Assembly (NCBI GenBank): GCA_036510155.1
Contig: DATCEK010000161.1
Span: forward strand, 5,347-69,346
DNA: 64,000 nucleotides
DNA from: Solirubrobacteraceae bacterium
Lineage (GTDB): Bacteria; Actinomycetota; Thermoleophilia; Solirubrobacterales; Solirubrobacteraceae
Direction of reading: 5' to 3'
Positions within the stretch are counted from its first letter, which is position 1. The number at the start of each line of letters is the position of its first letter. Shown here one piece after another: positions 1,889 through 21,235 of this stretch. The notes under the pieces were generated by a model. That model ran no database searches. It was not told the origin of the DNA and worked only from the letters and a program-made list of their open reading frames with translations. Both the position numbers and the translations under genes were made by a program.

Positions 1889-3027
1889 GCAAGCGCTTCC
1901 AGCGCCAGCTCCTCGGAGACGTTCAGATCCAGACGCAAGCGTGTGTCGCGTACGAGCTCGACGCCGCGCTGTAGCGACGCCGCGTCGCGCCCGGCCGCAT
2001 CGGCCGCCAGCTCGGCCGAGCGATCGCAGGCAAAAACCAGCTCGGGGACGCCGAGGAGCAGACACCAAATGTCGCGCAACCACAGCTCGGCGAGGCGCAG
2101 CCCAAGCTCGAGCGTGGCGGTGCGCTCGCGGCGCTCGGCGCGGCGCACGACGTCGGCGCCTTCGCGCTCGTACTTGCGCTGCTCCTTGCTGGGCAGGAAC
2201 CCGGCCTGCTCGTGCAGGCGCTCGCTGACCGCCGTCCCGGCCACGGCGCCCGCGGCCTTGGCGGCCTCGAGCAAGCCCATCCACAGACGCTGCTCGACGT
2301 TGTCCTGTAGCGCCGAGCGCACGAACTGCTCGGCGCACTCGCGCAGCGCGATGCCACGCTCGCCGGCCAACAGCTCGGCAAGCCGACCGTCGCCGGCTGC
2401 CATGCGCGCGCAGGCGGCAGCACGGTCGGGCTCGACGCCCGCCGCGCCCTCGCCGTCCCGTAGACGTGCGACGAGCAGCTCGTCAGAGAGCGGGTCGAAG
2501 CGCACCTGCTGGCAGCGCGAGGCGATTGTGGGCAGCACGTCGTCGCGGTGCTCGGCCAGCAGGATCAGGTGCGCAAACGGCGGTGGCTCCTCGAGGGTCT
2601 TGAGCAAGCGGTTGGCGGCCTGGTCGTTCATGCTGCCGGCCGCCTCGATCACGAACACGCGCCTGGCGGACTCAAAGGGCGTGTGCGCCGCCGCGGCCAC
2701 CACCGGCTCGTCGATATCGCTGACGAGCACTTCGCTGGCCCCGCTCGGAGTCACCCAGGTGAGGTCGGGGTGAGCGTCGTGCTGGACTCGCACGGCGACG
2801 GTGGAGGGCTCTCGCGCGCCATCGGCGAGCAAGGCAGCCGCGAACGCGCGCGCAACCGTGCGCTTGCCAGTGCCCGACGGGCCGTGGAACAGGTAGGCGT
2901 GCGAAGGGCTGCCGGTTGGGAGTAGCGCCGGCAGCAGCACGGCGCGCGCGTGCGGATGCGGCTCGATCCCGGCAAGCACCCCATCGACGGCGCCCGACTC
3001 AGCTGAGATTGGCAACACCGAGACCAT
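1843..3027 (-). CDS. holB: DNA polymerase III subunit delta-prime
   Basis: HAYLFHGPSGTGK, HPDL, VFVIEAA, NRLLKTLEEPP, LPTIASRCQ motifs. Start placed at ATG 3027. Confidence 0.92.
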   Translation of the reverse strand: MVSVLPISAESGAVDGVLAGIEPHPHARAVLLPALLPTGSPSHAYLFHGPSGTGKRTVARAFAAALLADGAREPSTVAVRVQHDAHPDLTWVTPSGASEVLVSDIDEPVVAAAAHTPFESARRVFVIEAAGSMNDQAANRLLKTLEEPPPFAHLILLAEHRDDVLPTIASRCQQVRFDPLSDELLVARLRDGEGAAGVEPDRAAACARMAAGDGRLAELLAGERGIALRECAEQFVRSALQDNVEQRLWMGLLEAAKAAGAVAGTAVSERLHEQAGFLPSKEQRKYEREGADVVRRAERRERTATLELGLRLAELWLRDIWCLLLGVPELVFACDRSAELAADAAGRDAASLQRGVELVRDTRLRLDLNVSEELALEALAYRLAAIGPRLGVMP

Positions 3028-4864: not shown

Positions 4865-7800
4865 ATGGATTTCACACCGCACCCCACGATCGCAGAGGAC
4901 ACGAGCGCCGGTGAGGCGCTGTCGGTCAAGCGCCTGTTCACCTCCCCGGAGAAGCACCCGTTCGAGACGGTTGAGTGGGAGCGGCGCGACGCCCGCATCG
5001 GCCACGGCGACCGCGTCGCTTTCGAGCAGGAGAACGTAGAGTTTCCCAAGAGCTGGAGCCAAAACGCGACGAACATCGTTGCTCAGAAGTACTTCCGCGG
5101 ACAGATCGGTCACCCCGAGCGCGAGCGCTCTGTCAAGCAGATGATCGGCCGCGTGGCGGGCACGATCGCGGGTTGGGGCCGCGAGCGCGCCTACTTCGCA
5201 AGCGAGGAAGACGCTGAGGCTTTCGAGGCCGAGCTGACGCACATCCTCCTGCACCAGCTGGCGGCGTTCAACAGCCCGGTGTGGTTCAACGTCGGCTTCG
5301 AGGAGAGCCCGCAGTGCTCGGCGTGCCAGCCCTACCACAAACTCGTCTCGACACCGCGTGGCATGGTGCCGATCGGTGAGCTCGTCAAGGACGATCAAGT
5401 CGGGAGCGAGGTGTACGACGCCCACGGCGTGACACGTATCGTCGCCACCAAGGCCAACGGTCGCAAGCGCGTCCTTCGTGCTTGCTTGCGCAACGGTAGC
5501 TTCGTCGAAGCTACGCCCGACCATGTCGTGAAGGCCGTGTCCGAGCGACGTTCCAAGCCAGCATGGCTACGCATGGACCAGCTCGAGGTGGGCATGCGGA
5601 TGCACTTGCATCCGCATCGCGCGAAGGTCAGCGATCCAATTCGTGTCGCGGTCGGAATGGACTCATATGAGGGGTCCGTACTCGAGGATCTCGCAGAGGA
5701 GGTAGACAGCGTCGCGATCGCCGAGGCCGCGCTCGCCGGCTGGCTACAGGCCGATGGCTTCGTCGGTCAGTACACAGGCACAAATCGATCGTTGACAATG
5801 GAGTTCCAGGTGGCCACCGACGAGGAGTACGAGTGGGTCATGGGTCATCTCGATGTCGCCTTCCCGCACGTCCACCGCAAGGTACGCGAGGCCGACACCC
5901 AACATCTCCGTGTGCGGCGGATTCGTCTTTACGGTGAGGTCTTGCGAGAGTTCGTCGAGTCGTGGGGCCTATCGGCGCGCGGCACCGATATTCGTGTTCC
6001 GACTCGACTCTTCACCGCCTCTCATGACGAGATCGTCTCCTACCTGCGCAGCATCTATCAGGCCGACGGTTACGTCACGGTGCAGCGTCGCAACGAGCTT
6101 GAGAACGCGCGCGTCGGCTTTGCGGTAATCGGCGAGCAGTGGACCGAGGATGTGCAGCTACTGCTCGGTGCGCTGGGCATTTACTCGCGGCGGACCCGCA
6201 AGGCCGAGAGCAGAGAGGACCGCCATGACATGCATGAGGTGTCAATCTCAATCGGTTCGGAGCGCGCGCGCTTCTCGGAGTTGATCGGCTTCATCTCTAA
6301 GGAGAAGTCGGATAAGTTGCTCGATTCGCTGAATCTACGCAATCCCAAGCGTTGCCCTGACTTGCGTGAGGAGGAGATAGTCGCGATCGAGGTTCTCGGT
6401 GAGATGGAGGTCTATGACATCCAGACGGAATCCGGCGAGTACCTTTCGAACAACATCGCCGTTCACAACTGCTTCATCCTCTCCGTCGAGGACACGATGG
6501 AGTCGATCCTCGAGTGGAACACCAAGGAGGGCAACATCTTCCGCGGCGGCTCCGGCTCGGGCATCAACTTGTCGAACATCCGCGGCTCGATGGAGCCACT
6601 GGCCAAGGGCGGCACCGCCTCAGGCCCTGTCTCCTTCATGCGCGGCGCCGACTCCTGGGCAGGCACGATCAAGTCCGGCGGCAAGACCCGCCGCGCGGCC
6701 AAGATGGTCGTTTTGGACGTCGACCACCCGGACATCCGCGAGTTCATCTGGTGCAAGGCCAAGGAGGAGAACAAGGCCGAGGCATTGCGCGACGCGGGCT
6801 TTGACATGTCGATCGACGGCGAGGGCTTCAAGTCGATCCAGTACCAGAACGCCAACAACTCGGTGCGTGTCACTGACGAGTTCATGCGCGCGGTCGAGGC
6901 AGACGAGGATTGGCACCTGACCGCACGCGCCACGGGCAAGCCGGTCGGCGAGCCGATTCGCGCACGCGACTTGATGCGCGAGATCTCAGAGGCCGCATGG
7001 CGCTGCGCGGACCCGGGCGTGCAGTACGACACGACCATCAACCAGTGGCACACGAGCCCGAAAAGCGGCCGTATCAACGCGTCGAATCCGTGCTCTGAGT
7101 ACATGCACGTCGACGACTCGGCCTGCAACCTGGCCTCCTTGAACCTGATGAAGTTCCGCCGCCCCGACGGCAGCCTCGATGTGCGCTCCTTCGAGCACAC
7201 GGTCGACATCGTGCTGCTGGCCCAAGAGATTGTCGTCGGCCCCTCCAGCTACCCCACTGAGCAGATCGGCGTCAACGCCCGTGCTTTCCGCCAGCTGGGG
7301 CTCGGCTACGCCAACCTCGGCGCCTACCTGATGAGCAACGGCATGCCCTATGACTCTGACGCCGGCAGGGGCACGGCGGCAGCGATCACGGCTTTGATGA
7401 CCGGACGCGCCTACCGCGAGTCCGCGCGCGTGGCGGCTGTGCTCGGCCCCTACGAGCACTACGAGGAGAACCGCCAAGAGCACAACAACGTGATGCAGAT
7501 GCACCGCGACTCCTCCTACGCGATTCCCGACTCGATCTGCCAGGACATGGAGCTGCTGGAGGCCGCGCGCCGCTCCTGGGACGAGGCGGTCGAGCTGGGC
7601 GAGCGCTTCGGCTACCGCAACGCCCAAGCAACGGTCTTGGCGCCGACAGGCACGATCTCCTTCCTGATGGACTGCGACACGACCGGAGTGGAGCCAGACT
7701 TCTCCTTGGTCAAGTTCAAGGAGCTGGTCGGCGGCGGCCAAATGACGATCGTCAACCGCACCGTCCCCTTGGCCTTGCAGACGCTCGGCTACTCAGAGCA

Positions 7801-15799: not shown

Positions 15800-17233
15800 C
15801 TACTCGGGGCGCTCGCCTGCAGGCAGTCGCACGGTCGCGCTCCCGACCACCACCGGGATTGCCCCCTGGTACTTGCTGTAGAGAACTTCGATGAGCACCG
15901 AGCGCCTGCTGACGCTTTGCAAGTGTCGGCGGAGCAGGTGAATCTTCGCAAGGTCAGCGCCGATCGCCTTGCCTACACACTGGCCGCGGAACAGTTCGGG
16001 GGCGGTGAACCTGTGTGTCACCGTCGAGCCGCGCGTCACGTTGCGCCCGAGCGACCAGCCGCTATAGCCACGGGCCACACCACTCTGACCTGGCACGAGT
16101 TCTCGCTTGCAAGCAATCGCCGGAATACGCACGAGATAATCTTCTTTGGCGCTGGTGACAGCAAACGGCGCCGTGAAACTCAACAGGACTCCGCTCACCC
16201 GACGACCAGCCAGCTGGAGCCGCACGTGCAGCGGGCGGTGCAGGTTGCGCGGCGCCACGTCGCGGACAGCCGGCCAGTGCGGCCCGGGACAGGCGTCGGC
16301 AAGATGCCCCCCGCCGGCGCCGGGCGGAATGACCGGCCCACGCCGGCAGAGCTTTCCATTCAGCCGATAGGTGATCGCAGTGAGCGGCGCTGAGGGGTGC
16401 AGGTCGCCTTCGCTGCCGAGACTTTCTCGGCCCGATCCCTCGAGCTCTTTGGGCGCAGCCCTTCGCACGATCAGGTAGGCGCCGAGCGGTTGCAGCACCG
16501 CGAGGGTGCGACCAATCTTGCCGGCCTTGTAACTGACGCTGACAGCGGGCGCTCCGAGCATCCCGTAGTAGATGTTGCGCAGCTCGCCGAGAGGACGCTT
16601 CCCTTCCCCTCCATCCGCGGCGCCTGCGCTACGGTCGACGCCGATGTATTCCCCGGCGATGACCTGGCCGGCAAAGTGACAGCTGACGGCCTCTGTCGCG
16701 TCTTCGTCATTCACCTTCACCCCTACTCTGCTCGTTTCCGGCAGCACGTCCGCCGGCAGCGGGTGAAAGCGTCCGTCGTCGTGAAATACCCCGTCGATGC
16801 CAAGCTCGCCGAGCTGCCCGTTCTCCACGCGGCCGATCTGCAAGCAGACCTCCCCGCGCGTGGTGCGAACGACCCGCATACCCCAAGGCAACCCGCCTTC
16901 GGGGTCGGGCACTCGCAGGCCCAGCAGCTTTGATGCGCCGGCTGCTGGGACGCCCTCGCCGACGTTCGGGTTCAACCGGCCTTCGGGGCGCACCGGCGCA
17001 CCGCTGAGAATCACCCCGCTCGCCGCCAAGGCGATCGTCGCACTCGCGAGCAGGCAGCCAAAGGCGATCAACGGCAAGCGCAGCCTGCGTAGCCGCAAGC
17101 GCTCAGCGAGCCGCCATACCGACGCATCGACGCCGCTTTCGGTACCGGCTGCGTTGCTCGCGGCTGCGTTGCTCGCGTTCCTGCGATTTGCTGCCTCGAG
17201 AAGGTCATGCTCCAATTGTCCAAGGACGCTCAT
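15800..17233 (-). CDS. Hypothetical membrane-anchored protein, probable anti-sigma partner of the adjacent ECF sigma
   Basis: Starts overlapping the sigma stop (ATGA); short cytoplasmic N-terminus, one transmembrane segment, large extracytoplasmic region. Confidence 0.65.
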   Translation of the reverse strand: MSVLGQLEHDLLEAANRRNASNAAASNAAGTESGVDASVWRLAERLRLRRLRLPLIAFGCLLASATIALAASGVILSGAPVRPEGRLNPNVGEGVPAAGASKLLGLRVPDPEGGLPWGMRVVRTTRGEVCLQIGRVENGQLGELGIDGVFHDDGRFHPLPADVLPETSRVGVKVNDEDATEAVSCHFAGQVIAGEYIGVDRSAGAADGGEGKRPLGELRNIYYGMLGAPAVSVSYKAGKIGRTLAVLQPLGAYLIVRRAAPKELEGSGRESLGSEGDLHPSAPLTAITYRLNGKLCRRGPVIPPGAGGGHLADACPGPHWPAVRDVAPRNLHRPLHVRLQLAGRRVSGVLLSFTAPFAVTSAKEDYLVRIPAIACKRELVPGQSGVARGYSGWSLGRNVTRGSTVTHRFTAPELFRGQCVGKAIGADLAKIHLLRRHLQSVSRRSVLIEVLYSKYQGAIPVVVGSATVRLPAGERPE

Positions 17234-17793
17234 CGCTCACCAGCCAATCTTGCTCGTAGTGTGCCCAGCCCACGGCTGACCCGTTGCCGCACCACAGCCT
17301 CCGAGCAGCGCAGCTCCCCGGCGATCTCGGAGTAGTCGCGACCCTCGAGCACGCGCGCTTGAATCGCGTGTCGCTGCTCTTCGGGAAGACATGCCAGCGC
17401 GAGCGCCACCTGATCCTCGCGCTCGCTCAGCCGTGCGATCGTCTCAACCGCATGGTCGTCGAGGACCAGCCGCGGTAGGCCGAGCCGCTCGCGCGCGGCC
17501 GACTCGACTCGACCCTGGCGATAGCTCGAGCCAAGGACGTTGCGAGCGATCCCGAACAGCCACTGGTCGGCACGCCCCTTGGCAGGATCGTAGGCCGCGA
17601 GCGACTCGAGCGCACGAGCGAATGTCTCGGCCGTGAGATCCGCGGCCAGCTCTGGGCGAGCTGTCGCCCGCATGAAGAAGCCAAGGACCCGACGCTCGAA
17701 AAGCCGATAGAAGGCGGCGAACGCCTCCCCATCCTTGCCGGCGGCGACCAGCAAGGCAGCCTCGTTGCGCGTGTCCCGCTCCATCGTCCACAT
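17230..17793 (-). CDS. ECF RNA polymerase sigma-70 factor
   Basis: DGEAFAAFY...AADLTAETF...WLFGIARN region 2; LPEEQR.AI...YSEIA...VRQRVSRGL region 4. Confidence 0.92.
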   Translation of the reverse strand: MWTMERDTRNEAALLVAAGKDGEAFAAFYRLFERRVLGFFMRATARPELAADLTAETFARALESLAAYDPAKGRADQWLFGIARNVLGSSYRQGRVESAARERLGLPRLVLDDHAVETIARLSEREDQVALALACLPEEQRHAIQARVLEGRDYSEIAGELRCSEAVVRQRVSRGLGTLRARLAGER

Positions 17794-17822: not shown

Positions 17823-17950
17823 GGCGACAGCAGTGCTCCGCGCGGGCATGCCCCACTTGCTGAGGCGATGTAAAAAACCAGAGTTCTAATATTGCGGCAA
17901 AGTATGTTTCCTGGCGTCTGCGCGCGCATACAACCGGCAAACCCACAGCG

Positions 17951-17990
17951 AATTCACGGGATGGACCGCTAATTCACGGGATGGACCGCT
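17951..17990. repeat. Exact tandem duplication of 20 bp (AATTCACGGGATGGACCGCT x2) at the csrA 3' end
   Basis: Copies at 17951-17970 and 17971-17990. Confidence 0.92.
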
Positions 17991-18315
17991 AGGTCCCCGG
18001 CTCGGCCGGCGGCGAACTCCTTGGCGACGACCCCTCCTGCTCGGGCGACTCCTCCGGCGATGGCGATACCTCCCCGGCGGGCGACGCCACATCCATCTCC
18101 TCGATCGGCGCCGACGGAAGCGCGTCGGCCTGCGCCTCTGCCGCCGCCCGGTTCTCCTCCTTGACGGCTAGCCATATCTCCTCGCGGAAGATCGACACGC
18201 CCTTCGGCGCCTCGATCCCTAGGCGCACCGTGCTGGCGCTGACCTCCATTACGGTCACGAGAATCTCGTCGCCGATCACGACGCGCTCTCCCGGACGTCG
18301 CGCCAGTATTAGCAT
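17989..18315 (-). CDS. csrA: Carbon storage regulator CsrA with extended C-terminus
   Basis: MLILARRPGERVVIGDEILVTVMEV....VRLGIEAPKGVSIFREEIWLAVKEEN (FliW-type C-terminal extension) followed by a Ser/Pro/Glu-rich tail. Confidence 0.95.
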   Translation of the reverse strand: MLILARRPGERVVIGDEILVTVMEVSASTVRLGIEAPKGVSIFREEIWLAVKEENRAAAEAQADALPSAPIEEMDVASPAGEVSPSPEESPEQEGSSPRSSPPAEPGT

Positions 18316-18319
18316 CGCT

Positions 18320-18483
18320 GAAGGTCTTTCAAGATTATCTGTGCGTTCGGGGCGTTCATGGACCAAGCTGGGCGCCGCGGGGCGTCGCAGCGCGTGCTGG
18401 TTGCACGTGCAAGACGTCACGTGGCGATCCAGCGCCGCGTCCAGGGACGTATCCGAGCGTGCAGATCATCTTGAAAGACCTTC
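18320..18483 (+). ncRNA. Candidate structured element: 164-nt rod-like fold-back between fliW and csrA
   Basis: 31-bp terminal inverted repeat (18320-18350 / 18453-18483, 27/31 Watson-Crick) plus nested inner stems and two apical mini-hairpins; most mismatches are G-U on the + strand. Confidence 0.5.
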
Positions 18484-18492
18484 TTCCAAAGA

Positions 18493-18945
18493 TTATGAAG
18501 CTATTCGTGTCGTCTCGTCTGAGAGCACGAACAGTGGGGCCTGCAACAGGGCCTCCGGGTTGGCGTTGATGACCTGATAGCCGCGGCCCTCGTGGACGAC
18601 GAGCGGCGCGCGCAGGTTGGCGGTGATATCGAGTGGATTTGGTGTGGCGCGCACGGTCACGTATAGCTCTACCTCCTCTGTCCCCGCCCCGATCCCGGTT
18701 CGCTCGACGTCCTCCGGGGCCATGTGCAGCGAGAAGTCTGAGAAGAACGGTTCGGGGCGCACCACCGGCAATGCGAGCGCCGGCTCGTCGACCGAGTGCA
18801 GCCACAAGAAGCCGGTGCCGGGGTTGCGGTCGAGCAGCGTGTAGCGGGCGCCCCCCAGTCCGATCAGACCGAAGGGGAACTCGATCACATCCTCCTCGGC
18901 GACCTGCACCTCTCCGAAACGGATGCTCTGAAATGTCACAGACAA
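18493..18945 (-). CDS. fliW: Flagellar assembly factor FliW
   Basis: RFGEVQV.EEDVIEFPFGLIG, FLWLHSVDEP.LALPVV.P, TANLRAPLVV; next to csrA. Confidence 0.93.
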   Translation of the reverse strand: MSVTFQSIRFGEVQVAEEDVIEFPFGLIGLGGARYTLLDRNPGTGFLWLHSVDEPALALPVVRPEPFFSDFSLHMAPEDVERTGIGAGTEEVELYVTVRATPNPLDITANLRAPLVVHEGRGYQVINANPEALLQAPLFVLSDETTRIAS

Positions 18946-18966: not shown

Positions 18967-19881
18967 CTACTGCAAGAACTGCAGTAGGGATTCTTGGACG
19001 ATGCTGGCGCCCGCGCGAAGTGCGGCCTCATAAGCGGCCTGCTCGGTGGAATAGGCGATCGACGTCTGGGCGATGTTCGCGTCCTCGGTGTTGGACAGGC
19101 TCGCGGTGATCGAGCTCTGCAGCGATTCGATGCGGCTCGTGGCCGTCTGCAACTGGTCGGTCACGCTTCCCGCCGTGGCTTGCAGCTGACTGAGGGTGTC
19201 GATGCTCGTTTCCAGACTTTTCAGATCGGTCGAGCCGAGAGCGCTGACGTCTTCGGCGCTGCCGCCGCGTAGGTGTTCTGAGATCGTGCGCAGCGTGTCG
19301 AGCAGCTTGCCGTCAGCCGAGCCCTGCCCGTTACCGAGCAGCGAGGAGATGTCCGTGCTGACGTTGATCGACACGCCGGGCCCCACCGCGCGCGTGATGA
19401 TGCCGTTGTTGCCCTGGTAGGCGTCTTCGGCTCCCTGTGTATATGGGGCGGTCGTGGTCGCGGTTCCAGAGAACACGTACTGTCCGGCGTACTGCGTGTT
19501 TGCGTCTTGCTTGACGGCTTCGGTCAGCTGCTGCACCTCGGTGGCGATGCTTTCGCGGTCGCTCTGGTTGTTGGTGCCGGTCGAGCTCCGTACCAAGAGC
19601 TCGCGCACGGTCTGCAAAACGTTTGAAACGTTTGCCATCGCACCGCTGGCCGTGTTCTCCCAGGAGATCCCTTCCTGAGCGTTGGCCGCATAGGAGCTCA
19701 GCCCGTCGAGCTGGCTCTGCAGTTCGACTACCTGGCTTGCGCCGTAGGGATTGTCTGAGGGCTCGAGGATCGTCTTGCCTGAAGACAATTCGTTCGAGGT
19801 ACGCTCCAGGTTCGCCAGCGAGGAATTGATGTCGTTGAGCGTCGTGGAGCGGACCATCGCCGGCGTGATGCGTTCGGTCAT
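18967..19881 (-). CDS. flgL: Flagellar hook-associated protein 3
   Basis: ELSSGKTILEPSDNP, GQYVFSG, EDANIAQT; follows flgK. Confidence 0.93.
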   Translation of the reverse strand: MTERITPAMVRSTTLNDINSSLANLERTSNELSSGKTILEPSDNPYGASQVVELQSQLDGLSSYAANAQEGISWENTASGAMANVSNVLQTVRELLVRSSTGTNNQSDRESIATEVQQLTEAVKQDANTQYAGQYVFSGTATTTAPYTQGAEDAYQGNNGIITRAVGPGVSINVSTDISSLLGNGQGSADGKLLDTLRTISEHLRGGSAEDVSALGSTDLKSLETSIDTLSQLQATAGSVTDQLQTATSRIESLQSSITASLSNTEDANIAQTSIAYSTEQAAYEAALRAGASIVQESLLQFLQ

Positions 19882-19924: not shown

Positions 19925-21235
19925 CTAGAACCCCGTTCCGGTGTGCTCGATCAGCGTTTCGAGCATGCTGTCCATCGCGTTGAGCGTGCGCGCCGAGGCC
20001 TGGTAGCCGCGCTGGAAGCTGATCAGGTTGGTCATTTCTTCATCGAGCGACACGCCCGAGACGCTCTGGCGCTGGTTGCCGATCGCGGTCACCGTCGTCT
20101 GTAGGTTGGCCTGCTCGTCCTTGGCCGCCTGCACACCTGCGCCGACCTGCTCGACAAGCGCGGCATAGCCCTGTTCAGCGGCGCCACCGCGCAACGCCGC
20201 GATTGCCTGGGCGACGTCGTTGCCGCCCTTGGCTTCGGTCGAGGAGGTTTGCACCTGGGCAGCCGTGACCGCCACCTCGAGCGTGGCGGCAGTTGCGCCG
20301 GAGAAGAACGGCGTGCTCGTGTGCAGCGCGTTGACGGTGCCCGCAAGCGCAGCGGCCACGTTGTCCAACGCCGTCTGGTAGTTGCTCAGCGCTCCGGTTG
20401 GGGAGGTCAGGCCCAGCAGCGCGCCGAGCTTCCCACCGGCGGCCGGCGTGAGCGCCTGGGGCCAGTTGACCTTCGTGCCTTCGACCAGCGGCTTGGCCGC
20501 ATCGCCGAAGCTGACGGTGTCGGTGCCGTCGGCCTGCTGGCTGACGGTGACCTTGGCGAGACTCGAGAGCTTGTCGAGCAGGAGGTCGCGCCGGTCGAGC
20601 ATTTCGTTTGGCTTCTGGCCGGCTTCTTCGGCAAGCTTGATTTGGCCGTTGAGCTGAGCGATCTGGTTGGCGTCGTTTTGCACTTCGCCCGATGGTCCGG
20701 TAAGGGCCGTGTACTGCGCGCCGGCCTGGGTTGAGATCGTCGAGAGTTGTGCGCTCAGTTCGTGAAAGGTGTTCGCCAGCGATACGCCGGCGGCGACCAC
20801 TCCCTGCTTGGCCGCGAGGCTTGTCGGGGCGTTGGCGAGATCGCTCCAGGCGCTCCAGAAAGCCGAGATTCGACTGGCAAGGCCTGAGCTCGAGGGTTCG
20901 TTGAACGCCGCCTGGGCCTGGGTGAGCTCTTCAGACTGGGTACTTGCTTCGCTCAGCGAGCTTGTCTGCGTGCGGTACTGGGCGTCCAGGTAGATGTTGC
21001 GCACGCGCGTGATCGTCTCGGCGCTGACGCCGGTGCCGAGCTGTGCGCCGCGGCCGGTCAGCGGCGAGATCGCCGGGATGACGATCGGTTCCTTGGTCTC
21101 GAGGACCGCCCGCTGGCGCGAATAGCCTTCGGTGTCGGAGTTGGTGATGTTGTTGCCGGTAACGTCAAGCGCCGCCTGCTCGGCGACGAGTCCGCTAAGT
21201 GCGGTTTGCAGTCCTTGCAGGGTCGGGATCGACAT
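19925..21235 (-). CDS. flgK: Flagellar hook-associated protein 1
   Basis: LDVTGNNITNSDTEGYSRQR, GTGV, LLDRRD, SVSGVSLDEEMTNLISFQRGYQASAR. Confidence 0.96.
   Translation of the reverse strand: MSIPTLQGLQTALSGLVAEQAALDVTGNNITNSDTEGYSRQRAVLETKEPIVIPAISPLTGRGAQLGTGVSAETITRVRNIYLDAQYRTQTSSLSEASTQSEELTQAQAAFNEPSSSGLASRISAFWSAWSDLANAPTSLAAKQGVVAAGVSLANTFHELSAQLSTISTQAGAQYTALTGPSGEVQNDANQIAQLNGQIKLAEEAGQKPNEMLDRRDLLLDKLSSLAKVTVSQQADGTDTVSFGDAAKPLVEGTKVNWPQALTPAAGGKLGALLGLTSPTGALSNYQTALDNVAAALAGTVNALHTSTPFFSGATAATLEVAVTAAQVQTSSTEAKGGNDVAQAIAALRGGAAEQGYAALVEQVGAGVQAAKDEQANLQTTVTAIGNQRQSVSGVSLDEEMTNLISFQRGYQASARTLNAMDSMLETLIEHTGTGF

Follow-up and report, generated by a model that had tools for sequence, protein, structure and literature searches.

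The 64,000-nucleotide stretch of DNA analysed here (the window) comes from a contig of a metagenome-derived MAG assigned to the Solirubrobacteraceae. The genes flgK, flgL, fliW, csrA and an ECF-type sigma factor gene follow one another on its - strand, and fliW and csrA are separated by a 177-nt spacer. A palindromic element fills 164 nt of this spacer; it lies 9 nt from the fliW stop codon (TAA, 18493-18495) and 4 nt from the csrA start codon (ATG, 18313-18315, - strand), the latter distance in agreement with a preliminary description of the locus. The features referred to below are:

19925-21235, - strand: flgK
18967-19881, - strand: flgL
18493-18945, - strand: fliW, 150 aa (Pfam FliW)
18490-18502, - strand: box GCTTCATAATCT, comprising the last fliW codons, the stop codon and the start of the spacer
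18484-18489, no strand assigned: six extra bases at the right junction, TTCCAA on the + strand, outside the repeated unit and missing from the empty-site allele
18320-18483, + strand: 164-nt palindromic, MITE-like element, identified by its fold, inverted repeat, other copies and covariation; this is the best-folding strand of all family members and is antisense to fliW-csrA
18468-18483, no strand assigned: right terminal inverted repeat, ATCTTGAAAGACCTTC
18352-18450, + strand: conserved, slightly asymmetric family core (alignment A3, columns 34-132)
18320-18335, no strand assigned: left terminal inverted repeat, GAAGGTCTTTCAAGAT, the perfect complement of 18468-18483
17989-18315, - strand: csrA, 108 aa, start MLILARRPGERVVIGDEILV (Pfam CsrA)
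17230-17793, - strand: ECF-type sigma factor gene

Several smaller features surround csrA. Just 3' of its stop codon and upstream of the ECF sigma factor gene, positions 17945-17984 hold tandem 20-nt direct repeats (ACAGCGAATTCACGGGATGG and ACCGCTAATTCACGGGATGG, 90% identical) that could be an operator or promoter element. Within the 3' part of the gene (18028-18088), an 18-nt periodic repeat present in three copies codes for a proline/glutamate/serine-rich C-terminal tail, which lengthens CsrA to 108 aa. The promoter scan found a single sigma-70-like site, at 18305-18332 on the - strand and facing outward, in which TTGAAA of the element's terminal repeat is followed after 16 nt by AATACT in csrA codons 2-4. 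This site is not regarded as the csrA promoter because transcription from it would begin inside csrA.

Both the repeat finder and folding confirm the 164-nt fold-back reported in the preliminary description, with arms at 18320-18350 and 18453-18483. The outer 16 bp of the arms are perfectly paired according to the repeat finder, and the arms constitute the longest-range strong inverted repeat within the 64-kb window. Folding of the 177-nt spacer as RNA gave -117.7 kcal/mol for the + strand (z -11.0; none of 200 shuffles as good) and -86.9 kcal/mol for the - strand, which is the mRNA sense (z -7.5). Both strands are thus far better than shuffles, and the antisense strand is indeed the favoured one, as had been claimed, with an advantage of ~30 kcal/mol. 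The asymmetry is kept with DNA parameters (-60.8 kcal/mol for the + strand and -48.2 kcal/mol for the - strand). The excess of G-U wobbles on the + strand is likewise real, A-C occurring at two positions at most, but the hand count of six wobbles was too low: the minimum free energy (MFE) structure contains 10 G-U pairs. The apex, earlier drawn as a fork of two mini-hairpins, is a single helix both in the MFE structure and in the alignment fold, and one of its pairs covaries. A search of the whole window against Rfam 15 at gathering thresholds returned no match, and a permissive scan gave nothing beyond sub-threshold hits to miRNA hairpin models of plants and animals, at 36 bits where 268 would be required.

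A fold-back of this kind might be produced by an assembler as a chimera, and the Logan contigs do break at the apex of the palindrome. The element sequence is, however, identical in the three independent assemblies compared, namely L001, L003, and L002 together with the Logan contigs of peat runs X1 and X2. The sources with the identical sequence include an ENA contig and a JGI contig, overlapping Logan contigs from the two runs span both junctions, and related copies are present in dozens of other assemblies. Because of the identity between independent assemblies we exclude an assembly artefact, for which we see practically no chance.

For comparison, 80 fliW loci were taken from species-representative genomes of Solirubrobacterales, and fliW and csrA were located in each. 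The spacer between the two genes measures 8-9 nt in 54 of the 80 loci, including all 19 loci with at least 79% FliW identity, and one short-spacer example, GCTTCATAA TCTGAAGCG ATGCTGATACTG, aligns base for base with the flanks of the element in the window. The remaining 26 loci have spacers of 23-128 nt, with one of 604 nt, which are unrelated to the element. A contig from peat run X4, representing a near-identical strain, provides the empty site itself: position 18319 is joined to 18490 via 'TC', and of 182 flanking bases one deviates from the window. This junction is the ancestral TCTGAAGCG junction of 9 nt (TAA-TCTGAAGCG-ATG). The short spacers of the relatives and the X4 empty site, compared base by base, therefore show a lineage-specific 170-bp insertion into the ancestral 9-nt fliW-csrA junction, which is recent and polymorphic among near-identical strains. 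The inserted 170 bp (the 164-nt unit and TTCCAA) replace 'GA' of the empty site, so that the window junction has no clean target duplication; no canonical junction is obtained for this copy under any placement of a 2-5 bp duplication, and it has no T-N-A on either side.

Every Solirubrobacterales locus examined has an (A/T)TTGCTTCATAATC box 6-9 nt before the csrA ATG. In the clade with short spacers this box codes for the last FliW residues and the stop codon; in the 26 long-spacer loci fliW terminates earlier and the box is non-coding, yet conserved. It may be a translation-initiation or coupling signal for csrA. In the window, the insertion moves the GCTTCATAATCT box 170 nt away from the csrA ATG. 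The csrA frame continues without a stop upstream across half of the element, as far as a GTG at 18418-18420, which makes an ORF of 143 aa (17989-18420, - strand), and the gene caller applied to the source contig had set the csrA start 36 nt after the conserved ATG, for a product of 96 aa. Each of these versions is probably an artefact of the insertion.

A profile of the repeat family was run against the 80 related fliW loci (430 kb) and found no intact copy. One degraded relic is present in L033, the locus of a different species. This relic covers the fliW 3' end and the spacer (~2903-3002; ACGCCCCGGTGGCACCGCCTATTTGAAACAGGTCC followed by TTAG) in the orientation opposite to the window copy. 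It is a second, independent insertion at the fliW-csrA junction and appears to supply the last FliW codons there. The junction is a recurrent target, since a member of the same family has also reached the fliW 3' end in L033.

The copies that define this family came from metagenomes. In run X1, depth over the element rises to ~350, peaking over the core, against 9-15 in the flanks, and more than 20 contigs match the element only, with 80-95% identity. The loose ends of other metagenome copies begin at 18320 and 18484, which places the boundaries of the unit at 18320 and 18483/18484. The search for further copies that the preliminary description had recommended was made with a 20-mer from the best-covered part of the core, ACGTCACGTGGCGATCCAGC. 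It retrieved 38 soil and peat metagenome contigs from JGI, each with one full or contig-truncated copy, 82-94% identical to the window copy (about 35 other copies). The flanks are unrelated between the 38 loci, except for two contigs that duplicate another locus. The adjoining genes belong to the usual chromosomal repertoire, among them priA, ftsW/rodA, rne and dnaX, one gene for an MFS transporter and one for a glyoxalase; two of the flanking proteins have the same length but share no relationship, and the DnaX beside one copy is of the Solirubrobacterales type. Full copies (n = 29) measure 163-182 bp, with the consensus GAACGTGTTTCAAAATAGGCGGTGCGGTCGGGGCGTTCATGGACCAAGCTGGGCGCCGCGGGGCGTCGCAGCGCGTGCTGGTGGCACGTGCAAGACGTCACGTGGCGATCCAGCGCCGTGTCCAGGGACGCATCCGGACGTGCCGATCnTTTTGAnACACGTTC and the left-end pattern GAR-NNNN-T-N-TCAAAA. 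Nine copies with at least six different flanks form a young subfamily and are 98-100% identical; the family has been recently active, because one subfamily is near-identical at at least six loci.

There is no second copy in the 64-kb window, and BLAST of the family consensus against plasmid and phage collections gave no match. A scan of a viral collection with the 16-nt terminal repeat gave 38 single matches, about the number expected by chance, none of them two-armed. A literature search on MITEs in Thermoleophilia returned nothing relevant, and the repeat family is apparently undescribed. A protein-coding reading of the element was rejected, as no frame is open in all copies and the variation has no codon periodicity.

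Individual copies show further variation. Contig L122 carries a full copy at 293-456 and, between convergent genes, a half copy (left arm only, 2231-2285) immediately following the TAA that ends a ParA/ArsA-like ATPase gene. Small insertions occur in the right arm of L126, L127/L124 and L146, as an 8-9 nt block, CCCACCCAC, with an altered adjacent segment, and in the left arm of L158, as a 17-nt insertion; together they account for the elements of 172-182 nt. In L134 a copy (5885-6049) lies ~150 nt upstream of an RNase E/G gene. Since this copy recurs with its flanks in soil metatranscriptome contigs of several studies (RNA runs X16-X19), it is suggested to be part of a transcribed rne leader. 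Soil metatranscriptome assemblies hold other family members with flanks as well, in contigs that are unstranded and may include DNA carry-over; among the likewise unstranded Logan contigs of RNA runs, none covers the window copy.

Most copies read C-TNA-[GAAC...GTTC]-TNA-G, that is, they have T-N-A on both sides in a CTNAG-like target, which often contains a stop codon. The T-N-A is the stop codon of the gene ending at the element in L155, L137, L136, L150 and the truncated L122 copy; in L145 and L146 the stop is a TAG straddling the junction, and the element of L155 marks the end of two convergent genes. Left and right triplets agree in 10 of 26 copies, approximately the chance expectation for two independent T-N-A flanks, and are complementary in three of 26. 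The flanks of the young subfamily are TAA/TAA, TAA/TAA and TTG/TTA (two of three identical, one differing at one base). In the orthologous dnaX upstream regions of three relatives the element is absent; the empty sites have one TTAG, and the filled site has TAG on each side. These data favour, without proving, that a 3-bp T-N-A is duplicated within a target of the CTNAG type.

Each of the 29 full copies is more stable on the strand that matches the + strand of the window, by 23 kcal/mol on average and by 12-37 kcal/mol in every case except a degraded copy in L125 (2.7 kcal/mol). RNAalifold on 22 full copies gave 63 pairs, with 96.7% of cells paired, and the outer helix is 96% paired across these copies. 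Compensatory double changes occur at 18 of the 63 pairs; shuffles reach 8.1 +/- 1.7 (none of 500 attains 18) and slid controls 3-8. In the outer helix, 12 of 16 pairs vary among copies in this compensatory way. The core, with the retrieval 20-mer left out, averages 0.876 in pairwise identity and the outer helix 0.689, core conservation being somewhat inflated by the position of the retrieval 20-mer within the core. Over all full copies there are 176 G-U cells against nine A-C cells; the pair positions showing them number 25 and nine, respectively (p = 0.009), and G-U is the majority state at eight pairs, A-C at none. When only derived changes are counted (majority state Watson-Crick), the difference falls to 17 against eight positions (p = 0.11), and the bias may for this reason be in part, possibly much, inherited from one founder. 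Relative to the genes reading into the element, ~9-10 copies present the stable strand and five or six the other, according to crude gene calls. The preliminary description took the asymmetry to reflect selection on a single-stranded structure. A history of such selection is plausible because the asymmetry is common to all 29 full-length members.

Several known systems share properties with the family. ERIC/IRU of enterobacteria and the Correia elements (CREE/NEMIS) of Neisseria are long-hairpin intergenic MITEs of bacteria, 100-200 bp in size and polymorphic, with duplication of an AT-rich target. The element resembles them in being a non-coding, imperfect palindrome over its whole length of 100-200 bp, in its intergenic position near gene ends, in its presence/absence polymorphism, in what looks like a short duplication of an AT-rich target, and in forming a hairpin that, when co-transcribed, would be able to alter the fate of the mRNA. 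Among the differences, it has no sequence similarity to them, is hosted by Solirubrobacterales (Actinomycetota), is flanked by T-N-A within CTNAG instead of TA, varies less in the centre than at the termini, and prefers one strand to the extent given above. T-N-A on both sides and GAG/GAA ends are also shared with IS5-family (IS1031-type) MITEs, which make 3-bp duplications, and PIF/Harbinger-Tourist elements, the latter being the eukaryotic relatives of IS5-family-derived MITEs, and we take the termini of the element to resemble those of both groups. IS1031-group elements, which belong to the IS5 family, have been described in an actinobacterium with a 3-nt insertion site (PMC2516522), and IS427-group elements make mostly 2-bp duplications (PMC3281130). 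The difference from these systems is that no IS5-family partner was found for the element: matching ends spaced 0.1-3 kb apart in ~1.1 Mb of loci delimited only the short elements themselves, with no autonomous partner or transposase. The IS5-like assignment is accordingly a lead rather than a result.

REPINs are REP doublets mobilised by RAYT, with conserved REP ends and a variable middle. The element is similar to REPIN/RAYT systems as an extragenic long hairpin, often just after stop codons or between convergent genes, in which compensatory changes preserve the hairpin and a single-stranded intermediate is suspected. Its pattern of conservation is the opposite, with the ends most variable and the centre most conserved, its flanks look like a target duplication, and the family alignment has no GTAG-type flanking tetranucleotide of the kind that marks REPIN ends. 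With CsrB/RsmZ-type sRNAs and csrA autoregulatory leaders the element has in common its position directly upstream of csrA and the predicted occlusion of initiation; it is distinguished from them by being dispersed across loci, not conserved with csrA and without a match in Rfam.

In our view the fold-back is, with high probability, one copy of a dispersed, non-coding mobile palindrome of ~164 bp, MITE-like in type, from uncultured soil and peat Solirubrobacterales. In keeping with this, the element is short (<~600 bp), non-coding and bounded by terminal inverted repeats, it occurs in unrelated contexts as counted across the metagenome loci, and its presence or absence is documented by intact empty sites at fliW-csrA and dnaX. 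The proposal of an 'ssDNA palindromic element' came close to this as regards the palindromic element; for the single-strand part, the strand bias and the conserved core leave room for a single-strand stage, as ssDNA or RNA, without establishing it. The family would owe its mobility to a transposase acting in trans and leaving a 3-bp TNA duplication, the lead candidate being an IS5/IS1031-like DDE enzyme. The fliW-csrA junction may have been hit because AT-rich, CTNAG-like sites such as this one are rare in a genome of ~65% G+C. Some features sit less easily with a MITE-like element. The window copy has no clean duplication and carries six unexplained extra bases at 18484-18489. In a classical MITE the terminal repeats are expected to be the best-conserved part; the core here is better conserved than the compensatorily varying termini, the reverse of that pattern. 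A predicted fold preference for the same strand in all copies would not be required by a purely double-stranded DDE mechanism. Finally, there is one copy in the 64-kb window and no intact copy in the 430 kb of fliW loci.

A different view of the family is that it is mobilised or selected as a single strand, either as a REPIN-like/HUH (Y1/RAYT-type) ssDNA hairpin or as a structured RNA on a mobile unit, with the conserved core as the recognised part and an outer stem that need only pair. The common stable strand of all full copies, which persists with DNA parameters, the excess of G-U cells and positions, the number of compensatory double changes, the difference in identity between core and outer helix and the family members in soil metatranscriptome contigs all point in this direction. 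Against this, the T-N-A flanks and the comparison of empty and filled dnaX sites suggest a target duplication, which HUH elements are not known to make. Moreover, the asymmetry may largely be the founder's, judging from the derived changes, the conservation pattern is the reverse of that in REPINs, the orientation relative to neighbouring genes is mixed, the retrieval 20-mer raises the apparent conservation of the core, and the RNA contigs are unstranded and may contain DNA. We consider mobilisation or selection as a single strand quite unlikely. A regulatory RNA evolved for csrA, whether as a cis-antisense sRNA on the + strand or as a dedicated RBS-sequestering leader, is far less probable still. 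It was suggested by the stable strand being antisense to csrA, by the element abutting the AUG, by the lower predicted accessibility of the initiation region and by a TANNNT-like hexamer just upstream on the + strand. That hexamer, TAGCAT at 18310-18315, simply corresponds to csrA codons 1 and 2 read on the other strand, and it is also found in the element-free L006. The preliminary description further had the left arm covering the Shine-Dalgarno region, where no recognisable Shine-Dalgarno sequence is found. Apart from the degraded relic in L033, the element is absent from the junction in the 80 relatives and from that of the near-identical strain, it is carried by many unrelated loci, no Rfam family fits beyond chance matches to miRNA-precursor hairpins, and none of the unstranded RNA-run contigs covers the window copy. 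A cis-antisense sRNA evolved for csrA is contradicted by this distribution. The idea of RNA control of a FliW-type CsrA falls with it: many dispersed copies, as of a MITE/REP unrelated to csrA, had been named beforehand as the finding that would count against it, and this is what was found. For the RBS-sequestering leader, occlusion of the initiation region is predicted, but as a side effect; a dedicated leader does not agree with an element that is not conserved with csrA.

Compatible with a mobile repeat is the further possibility of exaptation, in which the insertion was kept as useful and resets the FliW:CsrA ratio through uncoupling, an RNase III site or a terminator. Three assemblies from different samples agree exactly in the filled allele, in which csrA is intact; the L033 lineage has retained at its fliW end a relic from this family; the old fliW terminal box survives upstream of csrA in the long spacers of 26 of the 80 lineages; and the predicted shift in initiation-site accessibility is large. 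On the other hand, a near-identical strain has the empty allele, which makes the insertion young and selection unnecessary, and the scarcity of AT-rich CTNAG-like sites, of which the junction is one, accounts equally well for recurrent insertion. We give exaptation only a slim chance. A view that combines both ideas is rather unlikely too: here a mobile hairpin would have a 100-nt asymmetric core acting on one strand (HUH ssDNA or RNA) and an outer stem free to vary if paired, and its insertions would have been repeatedly tolerated or exploited at fliW-csrA to reset FliW:CsrA in Solirubrobacterales.

As a copy of a MITE-like mobile palindrome, the fold-back is not a dedicated csrA device, because it is absent from this junction in relatives and in the near-identical strain and present at many unrelated loci; it probably disturbs csrA translation as a side effect. 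The 8-9 nt between the fliW stop and csrA in relatives suggests translational coupling, and coupling would probably be lost in the filled allele, where the 8-9 nt junction has become a 177-nt spacer. The operon mRNA would carry a hairpin of about -87 kcal/mol whose 3' arm (last 16 nt) ends 4 nt before the csrA AUG, and the element is predicted to bury the 20 nt upstream of this AUG. In the partition function, the mean unpaired probability from -20 to -1 is 0.10 in the filled and 0.29 in the empty allele. Opening of positions -20 to +13 is predicted to cost 13.4 kcal/mol in the empty and 24.7 kcal/mol in the filled allele, so that the filled allele probably yields less CsrA relative to FliW. 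The hairpin could also be a substrate for double-strand-specific RNases or an impediment to transcription. Coupling loss and occlusion would then be side effects of a selfish insertion and not an evolved control.

The analysis removes a tempting false lead, as the data hold no evidence that a FliW-type CsrA is under dedicated RNA control, and documents in its place an apparently undescribed mobile repeat family in uncultured Solirubrobacterales. These Actinomycetota are abundant in soil and peat and sparsely represented in culture. The consensus, structure and target preference of the family are well supported, so that they can serve in the annotation of these MAGs and account for breaks in contigs. 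The strand bias of the fold and the conservation of the core pose modest puzzles on how such elements move, and the junction, with its filled and its empty allele, offers a ready-made comparison for the dependence of csrA expression on the 8-9 nt coupling.
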